Source: Parcubacteria group bacterium Gr01-1014_38
GTDB lineage: Bacteria; Patescibacteriota; Andersenbacteria; UBA10190; CAIZMI01
Length of the DNA: 64,000 nucleotides
Direction: 5' to 3'
Assembly: GCA_007376145.1 (NCBI GenBank)
Contig: VMFP01000003.1
Location: 92,741-156,740 of the forward strand
Both the position numbers and the translations under genes were made by a program. Shown piece after piece: positions 3,407-35,448 of this stretch. Each line of letters opens with the position of its first letter. Within the stretch, counting starts at the first letter, position 1. Below the pieces are notes generated by a model that saw only the letters and a list, made by a program, of their open reading frames with translations, was not told the DNA's origin and made no database searches.

Positions 3407-4315
3407 ATGAGAGTCAGGGGTCACCGCGGTACCGGCGCTTCTCCTTCCGGAGAACGGGGGAGGCAGCGCCGCGAGACGCACGAGACGGCGGCTTCGACGC
3501 TGTCGCTCTACCTTCGCGAAATCGGCGAACGAAAACTCCTCACGGCCGATGAGGAAAAAGAGCTGGCCGTCCGCCTGCGCCAGGGAGACGAGGAGGCCCG
3601 GCAGAAGCTCATTGAGGCCAACCTCCGCCTTGTTGTCCATGTCGCGAAACGGTATGCGCGTCGGGGTGATCCTGAACTTTTCCTCGATCTCATCCAGGAG
3701 GGGAATCTCGGACTCTTCCGGGCGGTGGAACGGTTTGATCCGACCATGGGGACGCGCTTCTCGACCTACGCGACCTACTGGATCCGCCAAGCGATCCAGC
3801 GTGCGCTCACCAAGAGCCGGACCATCCGCATCCCCGAACACGTCCTCGAAGATATCTCCCGGATGCGGAAGACGCGTCATCGTCTCACCCAAGAGCTCGG
3901 TCGGCAGCCCACGTTCGCAGAGCTCGCAGCCGAACTCGAACTCTCCGAAGGCGAACTCCTTAAACTCGAGGAAGCCGCCTTGGAAACCATCTCCCTCGAG
4001 AAGCCGATCCGGAGCGGCGAGGAAGGGGAGGAAGCGGAACTTGGCGCGGTGCTTGCCGACCTCGATTCGCCGCAGCCGGAATTCATCGCGAACCAGCGGA
4101 TTCTCCGACGCCAGGTACGGGAAATCGTGGACGAACTCCCGCCGCGGGATCGGACCATCGTGACCCTGCGCTTTGGGCTCACCACGGGTGTTCCCAAGAC
4201 GCTGGCGGAAGTCGCTAAGGATTTCGGGATCAGCCGCGAGCGCGTCCGACAGATTCAAGAGCGGGCGCTCGAGCGCATCCGCGCCAAAGAAACCTCGACG
4301 TCCCGCCTCCGGTAG
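3407..4315 (+). CDS. RNA polymerase sigma-70 family factor (regions 2-4)
   Basis: Region 2 (DLIQEGNLGLFRAVERFDPTMGTRFSTYATYWIRQAI), region 3 and region 4 HTH (TLAEVAKDFGISRERVRQIQERAL); internal ATG 3407 chosen to avoid overlap with cutA. Confidence 0.88.
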   Translation: MRVRGHRGTGASPSGERGRQRRETHETAASTLSLYLREIGERKLLTADEEKELAVRLRQGDEEARQKLIEANLRLVVHVAKRYARRGDPELFLDLIQEGNLGLFRAVERFDPTMGTRFSTYATYWIRQAIQRALTKSRTIRIPEHVLEDISRMRKTRHRLTQELGRQPTFAELAAELELSEGELLKLEEAALETISLEKPIRSGEEGEEAELGAVLADLDSPQPEFIANQRILRRQVREIVDELPPRDRTIVTLRFGLTTGVPKTLAEVAKDFGISRERVRQIQERALERIRAKETSTSRLR

Positions 4316-4320
4316 GCGGC

Positions 4321-6933
4321 TTACGGCTGCTCTTGGAACCGCGGCGGCGGCACCCCAGGGAACGGCGGGGGGGTCGGTGACGTCACCGTAAAGTTGATTG
4401 CTCCGCAGTTATTGTCCTCCCGCGATTCCGCGACGCGATTTTCTGCGTCTGCACAGAAGGCGAAGCGATGCGAGCCTGGGGTCGCAATCCAGGGCAGCGT
4501 GAGTCCCACCGTCCCCCCCGCGGGGAGGGGCGGAGTGAGGCGCAGCCCCACGCGCTGCTCACCGATGAGGAATGCTGCGTCGGAGGCTCCAGCGGGGGCC
4601 AGGCTGCTGCGAACCGCCGCGGAGAGCGTGAGGGTTTGCCCGGAGACGAGGACTCCCGACACATTCAGGTTCTCGACCGTGAGGTCGGGTAGCACGGGGG
4701 CCGGTGGCGTCACCGTGATGGTTCTGCGGCAGATGTCCCCGAACCAGCGGATGCCCTCTTGCAGCATGGCCCAGTCAAACGGATACGAGCCTGCTACGAA
4801 GGGAGCCTGCAACGGTAAGGAGAACGAGACCGATTCTCCCGGATTCACGGGGGACCGGGGGAGCCCAGCCCGGCTGTGGACCCAACGGGTGTTGTCCCGC
4901 GGGTTTTCCGAACCGAGGCGGAAGGGGTTTGCACCGTCGGACGTCCAGGGAACGCCCCCAGTGTTCCGCATGGTTACTTGTGCCTGAAACTGCTCTCCAA
5001 CCGCGACACGTGTTGGAGAAGTCGAACCGACACAGGAAGCGTTACTCCGAGGCTCAAAACGAATCCAGAGGTTCCAGACATCTGTTCCCGATGGGGGACG
5101 ACGCGTTCTTCTTGCCTCCGTACTCTCCCAGACGTGTCCGACAAATTGGAGCGTGGTCTGCAAATGCGGGAATGATCCAAACGATACGGGCCCGGTGATG
5201 TTATTGATGGTGAAATAGCAGTGGTGACGTCCCGGAGGGCAACCGGGAGGAGCGTCATAATGCGCACTACTGATGAGGGTAGAATGTGGGAGAGGGAAGA
5301 GGCCGCTTAGGACCCCGTTTGATTCGTACAGAAGGTTCACCTCGGCAGCCGTGGGAGCGTTCTCGCAGGCAATAAAGGTCAGATCAAAGGTCACGGTAAG
5401 AGCGGTGCCATAGGTTCCGTTATGCCGCGGTTCGTTAATGAACAGGGCAATCAAGGCTGGCTGCGGGTGTTGAAGGACGTGAATGCCGTTCGCTGCTGCC
5501 GTTCGAGAACGGAGAATCAGTCCAGACGCCAGAAGGAGAAGTACGATGCAGAGCATCCGGGTTCTGGAAGGTGCGCGTCCGCGCATGATGCCCCACAGGA
5601 TGAAGGCGGCCAGTACGGCAACCAGCGCCAGCAGAATTCCCAGAATCACCGGTGAGTCAATGCCCGGAATGCGCTTGGGAGGGTGCGCAACGCTCTGGAG
5701 TTCCTCCGAAGAAAGATTGACGTTGTGTTCGTACTGATCAAGAACGTCTCCACGATCACTTAAGAGACGCACGCGAAAGCCGGGAGCAGCGATGTCCTTC
5801 GAGAGGGTGAAGGTCGTGTTGATGACGGTCGCGGCCGCGCCCAAGGGAAGCATCCGAGCTTCCTCGGCCACGACGCGCGATCCATCAAGAAGTTCCACAC
5901 GCGCGGTCACGTTCGCTTCGGTTTCTCGATCGGCCGGCCCCACGAGCGTTGTCGAGATAACGGCTTGTGACCCTCGTGCGGTAGCGATCCGGTCAAAGCT
6001 TGCGGTGACGACCTTGGCGGAAATGCCCTTCACCACAAAACGAAAGGCCGCCTGACCCGAGATACGTCTCTCCTCCTGATCCCGCAACGTCAAAACGGCG
6101 TGATAGGCATCGGGTACGGTGCCCGCGGTCACCGGTACTTCAACAACCACGGTCTCTTTTGACCTCACGGTGACGGGATCGAATGTCTGTTCGTCAACCT
6201 TTTGGCCGCTGATGTCCCAGCGGTACACTTCGCGATGCGGCCGCACGGATATGGCGGCACTCCCCACGTTCTCCGCCAACGCCTGGAGGGTGAAAGTACT
6301 GCCCCCTTCGACATTGGGACCTTCTTGAGGACCCGCGGTCTTCTTGTCCGGAAGAAGGATCGCGTTCGAGCGCAAGACGATGAAAGAGGCATTCGGAACG
6401 CCGAGATGCACTGTCGCATCGTGCCACCCGAGTTTTCGCCCCTGTGAGGTGACGACGCGGATACGGAGGCGATAGTCTCCCTTCGGCAGCAGGGGAGCCT
6501 GGTAGCGAAATGGGACCGTTTTCGTGCTTCCAGGAAGGAGCGTAAGGTTGAGTGGATCGATCACGCGGTCATACTGCGGAGCGGTATCCGCCTCGAGCTT
6601 CCCCGTCTCCACCTCGGGAGCGGGACCTAACACCTCAACCTGGTACTGGAGACCGCCCTGGACGTTCTGGTCGCGGTTCTCCACAGTGAACGTTCCTTGT
6701 ACCGCACCGTCCGTAGAGATCGACTCAACGTTGATCGCGGTTACAAACACGCTGGGGAGGCGGAGAAACCGACTCGCATCCGCTCCCGACGTCAACTGCT
6801 GAAGAACGGCAGGATCCAGTGTCGGTTGCGGAGGAGCGGGAGACGGAGCCTGCGCCTGCGCCGAGATCGACATGCCGAGGAGGATTCCCACGCCAAGGAC
6901 AGGCACCATGGCAAACCTCCGCATATCCCGCAT
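4321..6933 (-). CDS. Giant secreted surface protein (CARDB-like and NBR1-FW-like domains, internal 2-TM segment)
   Basis: Signal peptide MRDMRRFAMVPVLGVGILLGMSISAQAQA with GAGAGGAG SD before Met8; C-terminal CARDB-like fold (LPDLTVENLNVSG...EDNNCGAINFTV); NBR1-FW-like segment (NTGGVPWTSDGANPFRLGSENPRDNTRWV...GSYPFDWAML) shared with 8337..9812; two central TM helices. Confidence 0.75.
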   Translation of the reverse strand: MRDMRRFAMVPVLGVGILLGMSISAQAQAPSPAPPQPTLDPAVLQQLTSGADASRFLRLPSVFVTAINVESISTDGAVQGTFTVENRDQNVQGGLQYQVEVLGPAPEVETGKLEADTAPQYDRVIDPLNLTLLPGSTKTVPFRYQAPLLPKGDYRLRIRVVTSQGRKLGWHDATVHLGVPNASFIVLRSNAILLPDKKTAGPQEGPNVEGGSTFTLQALAENVGSAAISVRPHREVYRWDISGQKVDEQTFDPVTVRSKETVVVEVPVTAGTVPDAYHAVLTLRDQEERRISGQAAFRFVVKGISAKVVTASFDRIATARGSQAVISTTLVGPADRETEANVTARVELLDGSRVVAEEARMLPLGAAATVINTTFTLSKDIAAPGFRVRLLSDRGDVLDQYEHNVNLSSEELQSVAHPPKRIPGIDSPVILGILLALVAVLAAFILWGIMRGRAPSRTRMLCIVLLLLASGLILRSRTAAANGIHVLQHPQPALIALFINEPRHNGTYGTALTVTFDLTFIACENAPTAAEVNLLYESNGVLSGLFPLPHSTLISSAHYDAPPGCPPGRHHCYFTINNITGPVSFGSFPHLQTTLQFVGHVWESTEARRTRRPPSGTDVWNLWIRFEPRSNASCVGSTSPTRVAVGEQFQAQVTMRNTGGVPWTSDGANPFRLGSENPRDNTRWVHSRAGLPRSPVNPGESVSFSLPLQAPFVAGSYPFDWAMLQEGIRWFGDICRRTITVTPPAPVLPDLTVENLNVSGVLVSGQTLTLSAAVRSSLAPAGASDAAFLIGEQRVGLRLTPPLPAGGTVGLTLPWIATPGSHRFAFCADAENRVAESREDNNCGAINFTVTSPTPPPFPGVPPPRFQEQP

Positions 6934-27240: not shown

Positions 27241-28263
27241 GTGCCCTTAAGCTTGAAGGACGTATCGCAGGTCCAGCGTGCGCTCGTACGCTGGTTCCGG
27301 CAGTACCAGCGGGATCTCCCCTGGCGTCGCACCAAGGATCCGTACCGCATCCTCGTGTCCGAAATCATGCTCCAGCAGACGCAGGTGGACCGAGTGATTC
27401 CGAAGTACCGCGCGTTCCTCCGCCGTTTCCCCATCGTCCAGGCGCTTGCACGCGCCACGCCGCGTGACATCCTCCTGGCGTGGGCCGGCATGGGCTACAA
27501 CCGGCGCGCACTGTACTTGCGCAGGGCGGCACAGGAAATTGTCGCGCAGTATGGAGGCACCGTCCCGACGGACCCGGCGCTCCTGCAGACCCTCCCCGGC
27601 GTCGGCGCCTACACCGCTGCGGCGGTTGCGACCTTCGCCACCGGCATTCCCCGTGCGCTGGCCGATACGAATGTGCGTCGGGTGATCGGGCGAATCTTCC
27701 TCGGGGCGCCGCACGGGAAGTGGCGTGAGTCCCGCCTCCGTCAGATGGTGGAGCGCGCCACGCCGCGCCAGCCGGTGTCTGGCGTGCACCCGTCCCTCTG
27801 GGGACATGCCCTCATGGACTTTGGTGCGCTCGTCTGCAAGGCCACGCCCCGCTGCGCGGTCTGTCCCGTCCGACAGTGGTGCAAAGCGTATCCGCAGATT
27901 CAACGTGACAACGCACAAAAACGTCTTCGGCGAGCGAATCGCGGGTCTCGCGGGTTCCTGCGATTCGCGAGCACCATGAGCGGGAGGGGGGAGCATGGGA
28001 GGGGGAACCGAAGCGGTTCCCACCCCAGAATTCCCGACCGCATCTACCGGGGGCGGATTCTCCAAGCGCTCCGCGAACGGGATCCTGCGCCCGTGTCCCT
28101 TTTGGAGCTCGCGGTGCTTCTGTGCGAGGTTTCTCGGCCGCGCCTCCATCGTCTGGTTCGCGGACTTGCCGCCGAGGGCCTGTTGACGCTTTCCAGCGGC
28201 CAGCACGCCCAGTTGCCGCGCGGGGAAACGGTTCAGGGTTCTGCCCGACGGGAGGGGGCTTGA
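27241..28263 (+). CDS. mutY: HhH-GPD DNA glycosylase with 4Fe-4S cluster (MutY-like adenine glycosylase)
   Basis: N-terminal MutY-like (WFRQYQRDLPWRRTKDPYRILVSEIMLQQTQVDRVIPKYRAFL), HhH (LLQTLPGVGAYTAAAVATFA), FeS loop CKATPRCAVCPVRQWC; non-canonical C-terminal domain. Confidence 0.7.
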   Translation: MPLSLKDVSQVQRALVRWFRQYQRDLPWRRTKDPYRILVSEIMLQQTQVDRVIPKYRAFLRRFPIVQALARATPRDILLAWAGMGYNRRALYLRRAAQEIVAQYGGTVPTDPALLQTLPGVGAYTAAAVATFATGIPRALADTNVRRVIGRIFLGAPHGKWRESRLRQMVERATPRQPVSGVHPSLWGHALMDFGALVCKATPRCAVCPVRQWCKAYPQIQRDNAQKRLRRANRGSRGFLRFASTMSGRGEHGRGNRSGSHPRIPDRIYRGRILQALRERDPAPVSLLELAVLLCEVSRPRLHRLVRGLAAEGLLTLSSGQHAQLPRGETVQGSARREGA

Positions 28264-28308: not shown

Positions 28309-28983
28309 ATGCGTATGTGGCATTGGACCTCCGCGCTCGTTGTTGTGGCGGCACTCGCTGTCCCGCTGCCCGGGTTGGCGCTCTACCACCAAGTAACCGC
28401 GCCGGGACGTTCGGAGCTTGCGCCTGGGCAGGCGCGGCGTGCGCAGGTCACCCAGGAAAGCCCAAGTCCCAGTCCCACAGCGACCTTGGAAGTCCGCCCA
28501 CGTGGGCTGCTCCGGCAGGCCAAACACGCCGAGCGCCTCGACCGGGTGCTCGGTCATATCCGCGGCATGACGAACAAGCTCACGAACCTCTCGAGCCGTC
28601 TCGACAAGCACCTGGCGAACGTCGAGCGCCGCATTGCCGCACTCCGCGCCGCCGGGCACGACATTACCGTGGAGGAAGAACTCAACGCGGCGCGCACGGC
28701 GGTTCGCGCACTTCAGGACAAGATCGCTTCCGCGGTGCGTGAACTCGATGCGCTGGCCGATAGCGATCGGCCGCGCACGGCCATGCCCACGGTCCGACGT
28801 CTGGTTCGTGAAATTCGTGCCGACCTCCGCACGGTGCAGGCCGCCTTCCAGAAGTTGCGGCTGGCGATCCGCGCCGATGTTCGGGCGAATCCGTCGCCGT
28901 CGCCCACTGCGGGCGCACCGTCTCCAAGTCCCTCACCCGTCGACACTCCCGTGACGAGTCCTTCACCTACACCTACGCCATGA
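28309..28983 (+). CDS. Secreted coiled-coil protein with Pro/Ser-rich tail
   Basis: Signal peptide (WTSALVVVAALAVPLPGLALY), helical heptad region, SPSPSPT tail; hypothetical. Confidence 0.5.
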   Translation: MRMWHWTSALVVVAALAVPLPGLALYHQVTAPGRSELAPGQARRAQVTQESPSPSPTATLEVRPRGLLRQAKHAERLDRVLGHIRGMTNKLTNLSSRLDKHLANVERRIAALRAAGHDITVEEELNAARTAVRALQDKIASAVRELDALADSDRPRTAMPTVRRLVREIRADLRTVQAAFQKLRLAIRADVRANPSPSPTAGAPSPSPSPVDTPVTSPSPTPTP

Positions 28984-29273
28984 GCAAAGCCCTCACCTGG
29001 ATCCTCATCGCACTCCTCGTCATCATCGTGCTGATTATCTTCGCCGCCCTTCCGGTGCGGAGGTCCGCGGAGGGGACGCCGAGCCCCACCGTTCCTGGGT
29101 TCGCGACGCCCTTCCCGACGGTGATCCCGACACCTGCGCCTACGCCCGAAGTGCTGACTTCCCAGCAGGAACGACTGGCTGATCTCGAAGCAGCGGAATC
29201 CACCGAGCTGGCGCTCGAGCAGGACGTCGACAGCGACTTCAATAAACTCGACAGCGAACTGCGCGGCCTGTAA
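28980..29273 (+). CDS. Small membrane-anchored protein with Pro-rich linker and acidic helical tail
   Basis: ATGA overlap with upstream gene; TM helix WILIALLVIIVLIIFAAL; hypothetical. Confidence 0.45.
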   Translation: MSKALTWILIALLVIIVLIIFAALPVRRSAEGTPSPTVPGFATPFPTVIPTPAPTPEVLTSQQERLADLEAAESTELALEQDVDSDFNKLDSELRGL

Positions 29274-29306: not shown

Positions 29307-29343
29307 TATACCCCGTTAGAAGCATGGCTTCTAACGGGGTATA
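29307..29343. repeat. Palindromic element copy 1 (17-bp stem, loop ATG; core CCCCGTTAGAAGC/GCTTCTAACGGGG), intergenic
   Basis: Perfect inverted repeat TATACCCCGTTAGAAGC-ATG-GCTTCTAACGGGGTATA about 34 nt after the stop of 28980..29273; same 13-bp core recurs at 30921..30949. Confidence 0.8.
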
Positions 29344-30011: not shown

Positions 30012-30120
30012 ACGGAAAACGCATCCGTCCGAGGCGAGCGCGAGAAGCCGTCTGCGTTCGCTCGCGCATCAGGGAGGCATCGGGAAAATCACCCGAAGCC
30101 CTGGGCTTCGGGTGATACCG

Positions 30121-30582
30121 TCATGACGAAGCAGGCTGCAGATGCTGGATTTTCCCCAACAGCGCCATCAGTGTCTCACGTTCCGCTGGTGCGAGATCGC
30201 TCAAGAGACGATGACAGGCTTTTCGCAGAGAGCGATCCACGCGTTCCATGAGCTCTCTCCCCTGCGGGGTCAGTCTCACTCCGATCCGGCGACGATCCAC
30301 TCGTGTGAGCGCTCGCTCGATGAGCAATCGTGTTTCCAGATACGCGAGGATCCGGCTCGCTGCTGGGGGTTTGATCCTGAGCTGTGTTTTGATCGTTTGC
30401 ACGCTCACCAGCTCCGGGTCGGTTTCCTGAGCCGCACGTAACACGTAGTGGTGATGAGGACGGAGCTTATACTCCGTGAGTACCTCGGCATGGATGCTCG
30501 TCAAGATCCGCTGCTGGGCGCCCCACGCCCGCCAGAAGATGCGGACGGACAGTTCCTCTGCCGCAACACGCCCCGATTCCAT
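30121..30582 (-). CDS. MarR family transcriptional regulator
   Basis: Winged-helix MarR core (LTEYKLRPHHHYVLRAAQETDPELVSVQTIKTQLRIKPPAASRILAYLETRLLIERALTRVDRRRIGVRLTPQG). Confidence 0.85.
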   Translation of the reverse strand: MESGRVAAEELSVRIFWRAWGAQQRILTSIHAEVLTEYKLRPHHHYVLRAAQETDPELVSVQTIKTQLRIKPPAASRILAYLETRLLIERALTRVDRRRIGVRLTPQGRELMERVDRSLRKACHRLLSDLAPAERETLMALLGKIQHLQPASS

Positions 30583-30810: not shown

Positions 30811-32328
30811 ATGTCTGTGCCCCTCTCTGTGCGTCCAGTACGTCGCGGTCTTCCAGCAGCCGAAGTCATTACCGTATTTTCCGACGGGAAGACGTTCTCG
30901 CTTCCGGAAGCGGCGGCCCGCCCCGTTAGAAGCCGGGCTTCTAACGGGGCCCGCGTCGCCCGCGAACACCTCCAGCGGGCGGCGTTCAAGGGCGAGGCGC
31001 ACGAAACGCACGCGCTCCCGCTGCCCGGACGGACGGCCCGAACGCTCTTTATTGTTGGAACCGGCAAGGCCCTGACGCTCGACGTGATCCGCCGGGGCGT
31101 TGCCGCTGCCGTCCAGCACGCAAAGGCGGAAGGGCTGCGAACGGTCTCCATCATTGCGCCATTCGCGGCTGTGTTTGGCTCCGAGCTCGGTCGAGCATTT
31201 GCCGAAGGCGCCTTGCTCGCCAACTACCGCTTTACTGCGTACTCCGCCGAGACTGCGAAGCGGGAAAAGCGCCTGGCATTGCAGCGCGTCGAACTGCTAG
31301 TGCCGCCGCAAGAACGGAAGGCCGTCGAAGAAGGCGTGCAGCGCGGGACGATTGACGCCAGCGCGACAATGCTCGCGCGCGATCTCGTGAACGAGCCGGC
31401 TTCGCGCATGACGCCGCAGTCTCTCGTTGAAGAGGCGCAGAAGATCGCGAAAGCCTCACGAGGCGCGATCGAGCTGACCATCTTGGACCGCGCGCAGTGC
31501 GCCGAGCGCGGCATGGGCGCGTTCCTTGCAGTGGCACAAGGCTCAACCGCCGAACCGGCATTTCTCCACGTGGTCTATCGGCCGGCGCCAAAGCTTCCCA
31601 TCGTCGCGCTCGTCGGGAAGGGCATCACCTTCGATTCCGGCGGCTTGAGCTTAAAGCCCGCGGACGGCATGGAAACCATGAAGATCGACATGGCGGGGGC
31701 GGCCTCGGTTCTCGGCGTGTTCTCCGCGCTGCCGAAGCTGAAGTTTCCGATCGAAGTCCACGGCTTCATTGCCGCGTGCGAAAATATGCCGTCGGGATCT
31801 GCCGTAAAGCCGGGGGATATTGTCCGCACCGCATCCGGCAAAACCGTGGAGATTCTGAATACGGACGCGGAGGGACGCCTCACGCTCGCCGACGCCATAG
31901 CCGAAGCGCGCAAGGTTCGCCCGCAGGTCATTCTGGACCTGGCGACACTCACCGGCGCTTGCGTCGTTGCGCTTGGTGAAGAAGTCACCGGTCTCTTTAG
32001 CAATGACGAAGCGACCGCCGGAAAAGTGTTGCGGGCGGCGGAATCCGCGGGCGAGTACGTTTGGCGTCTTCCCTTGATTCCGGAATACCGCTCCAATCTC
32101 AAAAGCTCGGTCGCCGACATGAAAAACATCACGGGCAAGCGGTGGGGTGGAGCCATTACCGCCGCGCTCTTCCTCAAGGAATTTATCGGCAACACGCCGT
32201 GGGCGCACCTCGACATCGCGGGGCCCAGTTACGCCGAGAAGCAAACGCACCCCGCTATCCCCGTCGGCGGCACCGGCGTCGGCGTCCGCACCGTCCTCCG
32301 CTACCTCGAATCGCTGCCCACAAGATAG
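30811..32328 (+). CDS. pepA: Leucyl aminopeptidase (M17, PepA)
   Basis: M17 catalytic domain motifs (NLVNEPASRMTP, VGKGITFDSGGLSLKP, NTDAEGRLTLADAI, MKIDMAGAASV) with N-terminal domain; contains an in-frame palindromic insert at 30920..30950. Confidence 0.85.
   Translation: MSVPLSVRPVRRGLPAAEVITVFSDGKTFSLPEAAARPVRSRASNGARVAREHLQRAAFKGEAHETHALPLPGRTARTLFIVGTGKALTLDVIRRGVAAAVQHAKAEGLRTVSIIAPFAAVFGSELGRAFAEGALLANYRFTAYSAETAKREKRLALQRVELLVPPQERKAVEEGVQRGTIDASATMLARDLVNEPASRMTPQSLVEEAQKIAKASRGAIELTILDRAQCAERGMGAFLAVAQGSTAEPAFLHVVYRPAPKLPIVALVGKGITFDSGGLSLKPADGMETMKIDMAGAASVLGVFSALPKLKFPIEVHGFIAACENMPSGSAVKPGDIVRTASGKTVEILNTDAEGRLTLADAIAEARKVRPQVILDLATLTGACVVALGEEVTGLFSNDEATAGKVLRAAESAGEYVWRLPLIPEYRSNLKSSVADMKNITGKRWGGAITAALFLKEFIGNTPWAHLDIAGPSYAEKQTHPAIPVGGTGVGVRTVLRYLESLPTR
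30920..30950. repeat. Palindromic element copy 2 (14-bp stem, loop CGG; same 13-bp core), in frame within pepA N-terminal domain
   Basis: GCCCCGTTAGAAGC-CGG-GCTTCTAACGGGGC; translated in frame as RPVRSRASNGA within the PepA N-domain. Confidence 0.8.
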
Positions 32329-33843: not shown

Positions 33844-34647
33844 ATGGTTATAGCAGTTAAGCAAAGAATAAAGTCCAGAATCGCAAACGAAGCGGAAACG
33901 CGTAGGTTTCCGGGGGACTTTGTTAATAAAATTGTCTGTGGTGACGTCCTCGAGATTATGAAAAAAATCCCGAATGGAGCTGTAGATTTGATTGTGACTT
34001 CTCCCCCATACAACATTAAGAACTCAACAGGTAATGGTCTAAAGGACGGGCGTGGCGGAAAATGGGCGAACGCAAGTTTGCAAAAGGGATATGCGAACTA
34101 TGACGACTGTATGCCGCACGAAGAATATGTGAAGTGGCAAAGAGAATGCATAACCGAAATGTTACGTATTATCCCGGAAGACGGTGCAATTTTCTACAAC
34201 CACAAATGGCGTGTACAAGGCGGCTTATTGCAGGATCGTGAAGATATTGTTGGTGGCTTTCCTATTCGCCAGATTATTATCTGGAAGCGTAAAGGTGGAT
34301 TCAATTTCAATCCCGGCTATTTCTTGCCGACGTACGAGGTTATCTATCTGATTGCGAAACCGAAGTTCAAGCTTACGCCAAAAGCGAATGCTCACGGTGA
34401 TGTGTGGGAATTTACACAGGAGATGAACAATGATCATCCGGCTGCATTTCCATTGAATCTGATAGATCGAATCATTTCTTCAACAAGCGCAAAGATCGTT
34501 CTTGATCCATTCATGGGTTCTGGCACAACAGCAATTTCTGCTCTTAATTTTGACAGAGATTACATCGGAATTGATATTTCGCCTGAATATTGCGAGATAG
34601 CACGAAAAAGAATTGAGAACTACCGGTCCCAAAGTAGGTTCCTCTAA
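33844..34647 (+). CDS. Type II DNA methyltransferase, beta-class, likely N4-cytosine (SPPY motif IV, DPFMGSGTT motif I)
   Basis: Motif IV IVTSPPYNI precedes motif I VLDPFMGSGTTAISA (beta-class order); SPPY favours m4C specificity; directly upstream of the REase gene. Confidence 0.85.
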   Translation: MVIAVKQRIKSRIANEAETRRFPGDFVNKIVCGDVLEIMKKIPNGAVDLIVTSPPYNIKNSTGNGLKDGRGGKWANASLQKGYANYDDCMPHEEYVKWQRECITEMLRIIPEDGAIFYNHKWRVQGGLLQDREDIVGGFPIRQIIIWKRKGGFNFNPGYFLPTYEVIYLIAKPKFKLTPKANAHGDVWEFTQEMNNDHPAAFPLNLIDRIISSTSAKIVLDPFMGSGTTAISALNFDRDYIGIDISPEYCEIARKRIENYRSQSRFL

Positions 34648-34650
34648 CCA

Positions 34651-35448
34651 ATGCCAAAACAGCCAATTGTTTATACCAAGCAGGCATTGGTAGAAAAACT
34701 TAAGGAAATTGCTGCTGCAGACTGGATTCCAAATGCGCGGCGAGGGAATCAAGGAGGCGTTGGAAATACGCTTGAGGATTTGCTTGGACTTGAAGAGAAC
34801 AATTTACCATTGCCGAATGCTGGAGAATGGGAATTGAAAGTACAAAGGCTAAATTCAACTGCTCTTTGTACGCTCTTTCATATTGAACCTTCGCCTCGCG
34901 CTATTCGTTTTGTGCCACAAGTTCTTTTACCGAAATATGGCTGGGCGCACGGGGAGGACGGTAAGAGGTATGCAAAGGGCGAGATGAGCTTCAGACAAAC
35001 TATCCACGGTCTTGCTCGAAGCGATCGAGGGTTCATGGTGAAAATTGACCGCGAGGAAAGGAAAGTCTTGATTTCATTTGATGCCAAAAGCGTGGATGTA
35101 CGGCATAAAGACTGGCTTGGGTCTGTACAAAAGCGCGCTGGTCTTGGGGAACTCAACCCGCAACCATATTGGGGCTTTGATGATTTAGAACATAAAGCCG
35201 GAACAAAATTATCCAATGCTTTTTATGTTCAAGCTGAGGTTAAAACTGTACGAGGAAAGGAACACTACAAATACAGCAAAGTTATGATGCTTCAGAAGTT
35301 TAGTTTTAGGGGATTTTTAGAGGCGATTGAGGAAGCCAAAATTCTTGTGGATTTTGATGCACGCACAGGGCATAACCATGGAACAAAATTCAGAATGCGG
35401 CAGGACTGCTTGCCGATGTTATACGAAAGAAAAACTGTAGTTCTCTAA
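34651..35448 (+). CDS. Type II restriction endonuclease, MvaI/BcnI family (CCWGG/CCSGG-type monomeric REase)
   Basis: Recalled resemblance to BcnI/MvaI (GNTLEDLLGLEENNLPLPNAGEWELKV...TLFHIEP; C-terminal LVDFDARTGHNHGTKFRM); 3 nt downstream of the MTase gene; AT-rich. Confidence 0.65.
   Translation: MPKQPIVYTKQALVEKLKEIAAADWIPNARRGNQGGVGNTLEDLLGLEENNLPLPNAGEWELKVQRLNSTALCTLFHIEPSPRAIRFVPQVLLPKYGWAHGEDGKRYAKGEMSFRQTIHGLARSDRGFMVKIDREERKVLISFDAKSVDVRHKDWLGSVQKRAGLGELNPQPYWGFDDLEHKAGTKLSNAFYVQAEVKTVRGKEHYKYSKVMMLQKFSFRGFLEAIEEAKILVDFDARTGHNHGTKFRMRQDCLPMLYERKTVVL

Follow-up and report, generated by a model that had tools for sequence, protein, structure and literature searches.

Why does the leucyl aminopeptidase gene pepA carry within its reading frame a perfect palindrome that also occurs between two genes nearby? 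The initial annotation of the 64-kb stretch of DNA analysed here (the window) had pointed out two palindromes with identical 13-nt arms and the loops ATG and CGG, and both were recovered at the positions given. Copy 1 is the 29-bp element CCCCGTTAGAAGC-ATG-GCTTCTAACGGGG (29311..29339, no strand assigned), which is intergenic and located 38 nt past the stop of the ORF at 28980-29273 and 37 nt ahead of the ATG (29376) of an MBL-fold gene. Copy 2, CCCCGTTAGAAGC-CGG-GCTTCTAACGGGG (30921..30949, likewise without strand), lies within pepA. The two palindromes take the second and fourth places in the ranking of short-range inverted repeats over the 64-kb window, where no third copy was found at ≤2 mismatches, save one chance-level half-site at 28040. 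The count of two for the source genome covers this 64-kb part of a 172-kb contig.

Both copies are bordered by short repeats, TATA on the left (29307..29310) and right (29340..29343) of copy 1 and CCCG on the left (30917..30920) and right (30950..30953) of copy 2, none of them assigned to a strand. The stem of copy 1 can be extended to 17 bp by TATA/TATA and that of copy 2 to 15 bp by G/C, and these flanking bases had at first been taken as stem extensions. This part of the annotation has to be revised, as TATA and CCCG are both target-site duplications (TSDs), with CCCG...CCCG forming a direct and not an inverted repeat. The two TATA copies conform to the TSD register of the family and to its YNNR consensus, both described below.

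Insertion of the palindrome into pepA

The host gene pepA (30811..32328, plus strand) encodes an intact M17 leucyl aminopeptidase of 505 aa in which the invariant columns of the catalytic domain are all kept. Protein alignment placed an 11-column gap opposite the insert in 26 of 26 PepA orthologs, among them one with an identity of 78% (BLASTP) or 84% (alignment). Nucleotide alignment displayed a gap of 33 nt in both of the closest pepA orthologs, and the empty site of the closest one, AGCCCGCAC, contains a single CCCG that is doubled around the element in pepA. The proposed in-frame palindromic insertion was therefore upheld by the ortholog alignment, with a correction in size, since the 13 residues originally assigned to the insert are 11 residues (33 nt) in the protein and nucleotide alignments alike. 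Judged from these sequence comparisons, the 29-bp palindrome within pepA has genuinely been inserted and represents an ultra-small mobile element.

The insertion footprint (30921..30953, plus strand) consists of the element plus one TSD copy and adds 11 residues (~37/38-47/48) to the N-terminal domain. Reading starts at element position 2 to give P-V-R-S-R-A-S-N-G, and the predicted peptide across the insert is ...AARPVRSRASNGARVA.... Copy 2 lies upstream of the Pfam Peptidase_M17_N match (PepA residues 51-145), and no alternative in-frame pepA start downstream of copy 2 could be read from the sequence. In the AF2 model of PepA, pLDDT falls below 50 at residues 34-44, between the strand at 19-24 and the helix at 44-56. 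For copy 1, the intergenic alignment was too diverged for a clean empty site to be visible.

Distribution, target duplication and architecture of the family

An exact search with the 27-nt core found the palindrome in 71 loci from ~55 metagenome-assembled genomes (MAGs), mostly Patescibacteria but also MAGs labelled as other phyla; the hosts comprise Patescibacteria and other groundwater MAGs. Assemblies made independently in many studies contain the element, and its exact arm conservation is partly imposed by the search pattern used. Copies per genome look low, with 2 in 64 kb here and a maximum of ~7 loci for a single MAG; JAUYJM01 and CAYHST01 are among the MAGs richest in copies. The genes around the copies are unrelated housekeeping genes, as expected of dispersed non-autonomous elements.

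A perfect 4-bp flanking duplication accompanies 51 of the 80 non-redundant copies, whereas 2000 permutations gave 4.3 on average and never more than 13; a further 14 copies match at 3 of 4 positions and 15 at fewer. The suggestion of a dispersed repeat family rather than chance is substantiated by these duplications and by the 71 further loci. All 51 perfect TSDs fit YNNR and they represent 19 different tetramers, just 3 of which are self-complementary. In the TSD register the flanking 4-mers are 83% identical, and at seven other shifts the value is 16-32%. A 5-bp duplication is suggested in a few cases. The model of a 6-bp TSD around a 27-bp core was discarded, as its outer columns match in 47-48% of copies versus 81-85% for the central four.

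The terminal inverted repeat (TIR) is 13 bp long with the consensus Y-CCCGTTAGA-RRY, and the opposite end reads TCTAACGGG-R. The same ends of ~13 bp are found on longer elements as well (61-262 bp), all of which have a TSD of their own, and in no size class does the inverted repeat extend beyond ~13 bp. Left and right arms co-vary (GAAGC/GCTTC, GAAAT/ATTTC, GAAAC/GTTTC and GAGGC/GCCTC). The elements also nest in one another: locus L054 is empty (...GGAAGCTTGCGCTTCC...), and its counterparts L002, L027, L055 and L013 hold a mini-element inside with CTTG duplicated, which makes a second pair of empty and filled sites.

Copies inside genes and the reading frame

By a restored-ORF test, 32 of 83 mini-elements (~40%) are intragenic. 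Since 29 + 4 = 33 nt, insertion into a gene preserves its reading frame. The stop triplets of the element, TAG and TAA, are confined to one frame, and this holds in either orientation because the element is palindromic; consequently, two of the three insertion phases merely add an 11-residue loop. The intragenic copies are filtered accordingly by frame and phase, with 29 of 32 being 33- or 36-nt inserts whose phase is one of the two open ones. Elements with a loop of 4, 5 or 7 nt were confined to the ends of long ORFs or to places outside them, and the only 33-nt copy assigned to the stop phase owes this to a spurious antisense ORF. The translated loops read PVRSxASNG or PLEAxLLTG, and other in-frame copies likewise face gaps in homologs.

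Proposed mechanism and search for the mobilising enzyme

Both palindromes are very probably copies of a minimal, MITE-like non-autonomous DNA transposon that generates a 4-bp TSD and is moved in trans. The element would be composed of two 13-bp TIRs joined by a dispensable spacer of ~3 nt, the spacer itself presumably being functionally irrelevant. A transposase supplied from elsewhere would bind both ends, the target would be cut with a 4-bp stagger at YNNR and the element joined in, and repair of the gaps would duplicate the 4 bp. The pepA copy would have entered at codon 37/38, where the N-terminal domain has a connecting segment, leaving the gene intact, and the other copy of the window would have landed between two genes.

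No transposase or autonomous element bounded by these termini was detected in 1.38 Mb of element-containing DNA, no transposase was encoded by the ten ORFs of the window tested, which lie in regions that are low in GC or unannotated, and no protein-sized interior was present in the 61-262-bp relatives. The palindrome had zero matches in viral contigs (two probes), plasmids and phages. Several candidates for an autonomous copy were examined and rejected. A lone arm followed by an RBS and ATG in L026 precedes a membrane-protease-like gene, the lone arm of L061 lies inside a 622-aa surface protein, and the gene enclosed by a 1.87-kb pairing of arms in L055 encodes SMC. The arms of all 0.5-6-kb pairs with matching TSDs already belong to short elements, and 41 of 41 unpaired long-family ends were resolved into ordinary 120- or 228-bp elements or contig ends. 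Clustering of ORFs for a recurrent neighbour protein returned housekeeping genes only, plus Y1_Tnp/RAYT-like genes with their own unrelated hairpins.

As no autonomous element or transposase with these termini was found, the mobilising enzyme is named purely by inference, and we infer a DDE-type transposase acting in trans. IS1380, and also IS701, IS5 and ISH3, produce 4-5-bp duplications and have C-rich ends in the ISfinder tables. They resemble the present element in the 4-bp (occasionally 5-bp) duplication and in termini beginning with CC, and differ in that no transposase gene was found between such ends here; they offer a lead to the parent family.

A different enzyme would be implied if the palindrome were a REP-like sequence mobilised by a REP-associated tyrosine (HUH/Y1) transposase, as in REP/REPIN-RAYT systems. 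A perfect 13-bp stem with a 3-nt loop matches the hairpins that flank Y1_Tnp genes in similar genomes, for example TATATCGGGATTT-CGT-AAATCCCGATATA in L090, and Y1_Tnp/RAYT-like genes (PF01797) are present in ~7 of 190 loci. RAYTs are single-copy genes without bounding TIRs (PMC3116915), which would account for no TIR-bounded parent having been found. However, each of the 8 Y1_Tnp/RAYT-like genes in the loci has its own unrelated palindrome, and none is flanked by CCCGTTAGAAGC. The RAYT-flanking hairpins are also without flanking direct repeats, whereas the present family has a variable 4-bp duplication that is single at empty sites. Insertion of the IS200/IS605 type is not known to duplicate the target. 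Moreover, ~40% of the element copies are intragenic rather than extragenic, and mobilisation by a RAYT is altogether improbable.

RNA-level and regulatory readings

The palindromes could alternatively be mobile RNA devices, either terminator or attenuator hairpins or translational-bypass ('hop') elements. Their RNA hairpins are very stable, in the range of -33 to -39 kcal/mol (copy 1, dG -33.4 kcal/mol with z = -8; region of copy 2, dG -39.4 kcal/mol). Bypass elements, which are left untranslated and typically contain in-frame stops between matched take-off and landing codons, occur in T4 gene 60 and as mitochondrial byps, and the flanking direct repeats superficially resemble such codons. Against a terminator, neither hairpin is followed by a T-tract or flagged by the terminator scan; Rfam at its gathering threshold returned a single tRNA and nothing else over the whole window. 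Against bypass, the intragenic copies keep clear of the phase that contains the stops and are multiples of three in length (29/32), which is the signature of plain read-through translation. An RNA device is accordingly a very unlikely explanation.

Scarcely more credit, and in our estimate slightly less, is due to a regulatory or protein-binding palindrome that is not mobile DNA, for instance an operator for the adjacent MarR-family regulator. The MarR-family gene (30121-30582, minus strand) is divergent from pepA, and perfect palindromes are typical operators of dimeric regulators. Yet copy 2 sits 110 nt into the pepA coding region, outside the 228-nt intergenic region, and the closest relatives have neither a MarR gene at that position nor the palindrome. 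An operator would also have to be reconciled with the identical sequence in dozens of unrelated housekeeping genes of many lineages, with differing flanking duplications.

That the palindrome is a chance one, ancestral PepA sequence or an assembly artefact has a negligible probability, despite the occurrence of only two copies in the 64-kb window and the MAG origin of the source: the segment is absent from 26/26 orthologs and CCCG is single at the empty site, independent assemblies contain the sequence with target duplications far above permutation controls, and chance is excluded because the 27-nt core recurs in 71 loci and 51/80 duplications are perfect versus 4.3 in permuted data.

Comparison with known repeat families

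The minimal transposon proposed here belongs most naturally beside the prokaryotic MITEs, which are typically <500 bp, with a 39-bp QMITE1 copy as the shortest cited (PMC10969869); type II MITEs resemble their parent IS in the TIRs only (PMC10969869). Four features by which MITEs are recognised were found in the element, namely a length of <500 bp without a transposase gene, a TIR within ~4-30 bp, a TSD, and a multicopy, dispersed occurrence (PMC10969869). A further one is a cognate autonomous IS whose TIRs match and which provides the transposase (PMC10969869), and none came to light in the sequences searched here. It shares with MITEs, especially the type II families Correia, Chunjie and QMITE1/2, the non-coding nature, TIRs, flanking TSDs and dispersed multicopy state, and is further alike in its size variants with common TIRs, mutual nesting and stable transcript hairpins. 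It differs in being far smaller (29 bp, essentially TIR-spacer-TIR), in not being AT-rich, in having no known parent IS and in spanning many lineages of Patescibacteria. MITEs are normally intergenic, whereas ~40% of the copies of this element are intragenic and in frame.

The initial annotation had also likened the pepA insert to Rickettsia palindromic elements (RPEs), which are in-frame palindromic inserts in unrelated genes, translated and compatible with the protein fold (PMC10969869). The in-frame intragenic behaviour is indeed held in common. RPEs, however, are ~100-150 bp long, restricted to Rickettsia and unrelated in sequence, while the present element has a footprint of 33 nt/11 aa, a 4-bp TSD and a 13-bp TIR; with such differences in size, host range and sequence, the likeness is behavioural only.

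REP/REPIN sequences (PMC3116915) are similarly short, highly conserved, dispersed palindromes without coding capacity. In the genomes that bear the element, RAYT-like genes accompanied by hairpins of their own are also present. Unlike REPs, the element has TSDs, is frequently intragenic and was never seen beside a RAYT gene. To our knowledge, the only mobile repeats of similarly small size to have been published are the small dispersed repeats (SDRs) of cyanobacteria. Elhai et al. (2008, Genome Res 18:1484) reportedly found these repeats of <30 nt, partly palindromic, inside other repeats and genes, and the families SDR1-8 of Nostoc and its relatives are said to be 21-27 nt long. Their host phylum and sequences differ from those of the present element, which is explicitly transposon-like and tied to 61-262-bp elements with the same ends.

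The searchable literature contained no account of this element under MITE and palindromic-element, CPR, or leaderless and start-codon topics, nor in the paper on gene exchange in Hainich Patescibacteria; the arm sequences as literal text occurred in unrelated primers alone. The family is apparently undescribed and spread over bacteria of the candidate phyla radiation, often within genes without breaking them.

Significance and a sister family at start codons

If correct, this assignment would place the element among the smallest transposable elements with the classical architecture of TIRs plus TSD, and the minimal substrate of the putative transposase would be 2 x 13 bp. Mobile DNA of Patescibacteria would then persist via frame-neutral coding insertions despite gene-dense genomes, and housekeeping enzymes, PepA and a Mur-ligase-like protein among them, would gain short loops. 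Such inserts would make proteins vary in length and give rise to artefacts of annotation and alignment across a large uncultivated radiation, and the common 13-bp ends would provide a simple probe for the responsible transposase.

A sister family of ~120 bp inserts exactly at the start codons of leaderless genes. It may serve as a natural system for studies of leaderless translation and reinitiation and possibly as a genetic tool for the few cultivable Saccharibacteria. Taken together with the minis, it raises the tentative idea, which we consider possible though somewhat short of probable, of an undescribed family of micro-transposons that crosses lineages and has adapted to genomes of very compact build, in which the 29-bp members would be bare transposase-binding ends with a 33-nt footprint tuned for harmless translation, and the ~120-bp members would home to leaderless start codons. 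The element sequence would in that case have been shaped to neutralise its own insertions where intergenic space is almost nil. At the start codon, the ~120-bp members would regenerate ATG from their own last base and the TG of the duplicated target. Expression of the host gene may continue via termination-reinitiation or RNA processing at the TIR stem; the ~120-bp members appear to carry a 39-codon ORF, with a TAA stop predicted 4 nt ahead of the restored ATG.

Two copies of the element and the insertion in pepA

The palindromes with identical arms that the initial annotation placed at 29311 and 30921 were both located in the window sequence. Copy 1 (CCCCGTTAGAAGC-ATG-GCTTCTAACGGGG, 29311–29339) lies between an ORF at 28980–29273 and an MBL-fold hydrolase gene, and copy 2 (CCCCGTTAGAAGC-CGG-GCTTCTAACGGGG, 30921–30949) lies within pepA, the 505-codon M17 leucyl aminopeptidase gene at 30811–32328. 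With their flanks, the copies form perfect stems of 17 and 15 bp, respectively, and rank second and fourth among the short-range inverted repeats of the window; both RNA hairpins are very stable and neither is terminator-like. No third copy was found in the 64-kb window at up to two mismatches.

In an alignment of 27 PepA proteins, 11 residues of the window protein were absent from all 26 others, among them the closest relative, whose identity was 78% by BLASTP and 84% over the alignment. The contigs of both closest orthologs were syntenic with the window. Nucleotide alignment displayed a clean gap of 33 nt, exactly the sum of the 29-bp element and a 4-bp duplication, with the empty site of the ortholog reading ...GT-AGCCCGCAC... 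and the filled site of the window ...GGCCCG-CCCCGTTAGAAGCCGGGCTTCTAACGGGG-CCCGCGTC.... CCCG occurs once at the empty site and twice, as a direct repeat and not as an extension of the palindrome, at the edges of the element; TATA/TATA borders copy 1 in the same register. Copy 2 is thus, on the evidence of these alignments, an insertion, in frame as claimed but 11 residues (33 nt) long instead of 13. In the AlphaFold2 model, the insert falls in the one part of the N-terminal domain modelled with low confidence (residues 34–44, pLDDT <50), between the strand at 19–24 and the helix at 44–56, and the invariants of the catalytic domain are intact in the 27-sequence alignment.

A dispersed family with target-site duplications

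Scanning one genome per species with the pattern CCCGTTAGAAGC-N1-8-GCTTCTAACGGG yielded 71 loci in about 55 MAGs, in line with the dispersed repeat family suggested earlier, with part of the observed arm conservation imposed by exact-match searching. Patescibacteria was the label of 45 loci (Saccharibacteria; Kaiser-, Uhr-, Jorgensen-, Azam-, Nomura-, Taylor-, Sung-, Komeili- and Staskawiczbacteria; Minisyncoccia; Parcubacteria), 12 were labelled "bacterium" only, and 14 carried the MAG labels, as deposited, Nitrospirota, Omnitrophota, Nitrospinota, Planctomycetota, Akkermansiaceae or Gammaproteobacteria. Among 80 non-redundant copies, 68 had C..G as the outermost pair and 8 had T..A; 66 had a spacer of 3 nt, with 35 different spacer sequences after collapsing strands. 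The flanking 4-mers were identical in 51 of the 80 copies and matched at three of four positions in another 14, compared with a mean of 4.3 and a maximum of 13 perfect matches after partner permutation. These 51 perfect duplications represented 19 tetramers, every one YNNR and three self-complementary, and flank identity reached 83% in the duplication register versus 16–32% at the other shifts tested.

The variable target duplication of fixed length, the symmetric target consensus and the short conserved terminal inverted repeats (TIRs) point to a transposase that would make staggered cuts at the target and may be of the DDE type. No recurrent protein family was found beside the elements at the loci carrying them, no protein-sized interval between element ends in 1.38 Mb, no transposase among the window ORFs tested, and no match to the element on viral contigs, plasmids or phages. 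We take IS1380 (ends CC, 4–5-bp duplication), IS701, IS5 and ISH3 to be candidate parents.

Mobilisation by a REP/RAYT (IS200-like) mechanism was also considered, as IS200-like/RAYT genes (PF01797) are present at about seven loci and several are bordered on both sides by perfect hairpins sharing the 13-3-13 geometry of the element. However, these hairpins are unrelated in sequence, never include CCCGTTAGAAGC and lack a flanking duplication, and the element is often intragenic, which together make this mechanism unlikely. The RAYT-type genes of contigs L088 (5069–5863), L090 (11028–11841), L191 (492–1269) and L030 (4223–5008), with their own perfect hairpins on both sides (stems of 9–23 bp and loops of 3–7 nt in the first three, 9-bp stems and 7-nt loops in L030, none with a target duplication), are REP-RAYT-like units in CPR-type contigs.

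Two Nitrospirota-labelled loci, L038 (3410–3520) and L064 (675–740), harbor the short palindrome inside tandemly repeated heptanucleotides (AGTTCGG and CTGACTN; TTGACCC) with the target TTGA/CTGA. L032 (3222–3248) and L041 (3765–3791), labelled Nitrospinota and Thermodesulfovibrionales, share an insertion site with similar flanks and the identical spacer GAT, reflecting either an orthologous inherited insertion or inconsistent taxonomic labels.

Behaviour in coding sequence

The only stop triplets of the palindrome are TAG (positions 7–9) and TAA (22–24), which fall in one frame, on both strands by symmetry. When the element and one duplication copy were deleted in silico, with at least 50 codons required on each side, an ORF was restored in 32 of 83 copies, and in 29 of these intragenic copies the insert measured 33 or 36 nt and lay in one of the two open phases. 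The sole 33-nt case in the stop phase was copy 1 of the window, for which the scored ORF was a spurious antisense one, and spacers of 4, 5 or 7 nt appeared only at the ends of long ORFs or outside them. For a Mur-ligase-like protein and for several others, element-free homologs were gapped at the insert. In-frame insertion into genes is therefore characteristic of the family and results from a survival filter, and this argues against translational bypass of the insert. The data do not agree with the element acting as operator of the neighbouring MarR gene, since copy 2 sits 110 nt into pepA, relatives lack both the site and a MarR gene at that position, and the identical sequence is found in unrelated genes elsewhere.

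Longer elements and MITE architecture

The ends Y-CCCGTTAGA-RRY also delimit elements of 61, 63, 64, 78, 79, 119/120, 153, 227 and 258–262 bp, almost every one of which has a 4-bp duplication of its own (a 227-bp copy in L054 has none). Their interiors are heterogeneous and asymmetric, with an inverted-repeated part of only about 13 bp, and the arm variants of the left and right ends co-vary. Long elements contain nested copies of the short palindrome; at one nested site, L054 is empty (...GGAAGCTTGCGCTTCC...) and L002, L027, L055 and L013 are filled with CTTG doubled, which by sequence comparison is a second, independent empty/filled pair. Prokaryotic MITEs were defined in a 2024 review as shorter than 500 bp with TIRs of 4–30 bp and flanking direct repeats, type II MITEs having only TIRs in common with an IS (PMC10969869), and by these criteria the family is built like a MITE, at the lower extreme of the size range. 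Its nearest concepts are type II MITEs, Rickettsia palindromic elements, REP/REPINs and cyanobacterial SDRs; a description of the family was not found in the searchable literature. A hot spot at 3899–6888 of the Saccharibacteria contig L054, with a homologous region in L077, holds four to five family members in 3 kb, among them copies lying in frame within a 334-aa protein and an RsmA/KsgA-like methyltransferase gene.

A sister family of about 120 bp at start codons

Probing metagenomes with the subterminal sequence CCCGTTAGARGTYRCGGAAGT returned at least 120 matches (loci L074–L193). This sister family shares the 13-bp ends of the short palindrome. Among the matches listed, 75 of 85 elements paired by perfect duplications were 117–124 bp long (mode 120 bp), with the consensus TCCCGTTAGAAGTcgCGGAAGTT...AGTCGGAAGCGCAAGCTTCCTACTTCTAACGGGA and the duplication TGAA (53), TGGA (13) or else TGGG, TGAG or TGCG. 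ATG was the upstream flank in 80 of these 85 listed elements and was regenerated at the downstream junction in 82, of which 75 opened an ORF of 60 or more codons (median 178), versus 41% at control ATGRR sites. Fifty-six comparisons with homologous genes free of the element, among the listed matches, place it in the start codon itself, as exemplified by L102 (648–768). Upstream DNA was alignable in several of them, including L102 versus L083, L105 versus L162, and L089 versus L119, the last with TTGACA-N17-TAGTAT-N6-ATG.

A −10-like signal (G-14, T-12, A-11, A-8, T-7) lies at a fixed distance upstream of the target genes, TANNNT occurring at 56% of the listed sites versus 26% of controls. Few of the listed target genes have a Shine-Dalgarno motif, which together with the −10-like signal points to leaderless genes. 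Among the 85 listed copies, a 39-codon ORF (MNPVRSRGS...ESEAQASYF) starts at the upstream ATG in 49, and in 55 its stop, the TAA of the right TIR, ends 4 nt upstream of the restored ATG. The downstream ATG is retained where the upstream copy has decayed. Expression might proceed by termination-reinitiation or by processing at the TIR stem.

Other features of the window and its relatives

PepA orthologs of the clade (P0002 and others) carry further lineage-specific insertions of 9–25 residues at alignment columns 133–141 and 301–325. Between the MBL-fold gene and pepA, gene content differs among close relatives: the window has a MarR-family regulator (30121–30582), L072 a methyltransferase and a UbiA prenyltransferase (4299–5926), and L073 no gene (1620–1673). 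A perfect 14-bp hairpin at 30088–30116 (ATCACCCGAAGCCC-T-GGGCTTCGGGTGAT), where the MBL-fold and MarR genes converge, is not a family member and is likely a bidirectional terminator-type structure.

A low-GC island at about 32–37 kb (47% GC versus about 62%) includes an N4/N6 DNA methyltransferase adjoining an MvaI/BcnI-family restriction endonuclease (33844–35445), so this gene pair is probably a restriction-modification system, horizontally acquired. BcnI cleaves at CCSGG, and in pepA copy 2 the spacer gives rise to a CCGGG site (GAAGCCGGGCTTC). An imperfect 24-nt inverted repeat at 50007–50064 (AGGGTGCTAGGGACTAGGTGCTAG / CTAGACCCGAGTCCCTAGTCCCCT), between ORFs at 49648–49998 and 50333–50827, the latter IF3-like by eye, might be a regulatory leader structure.
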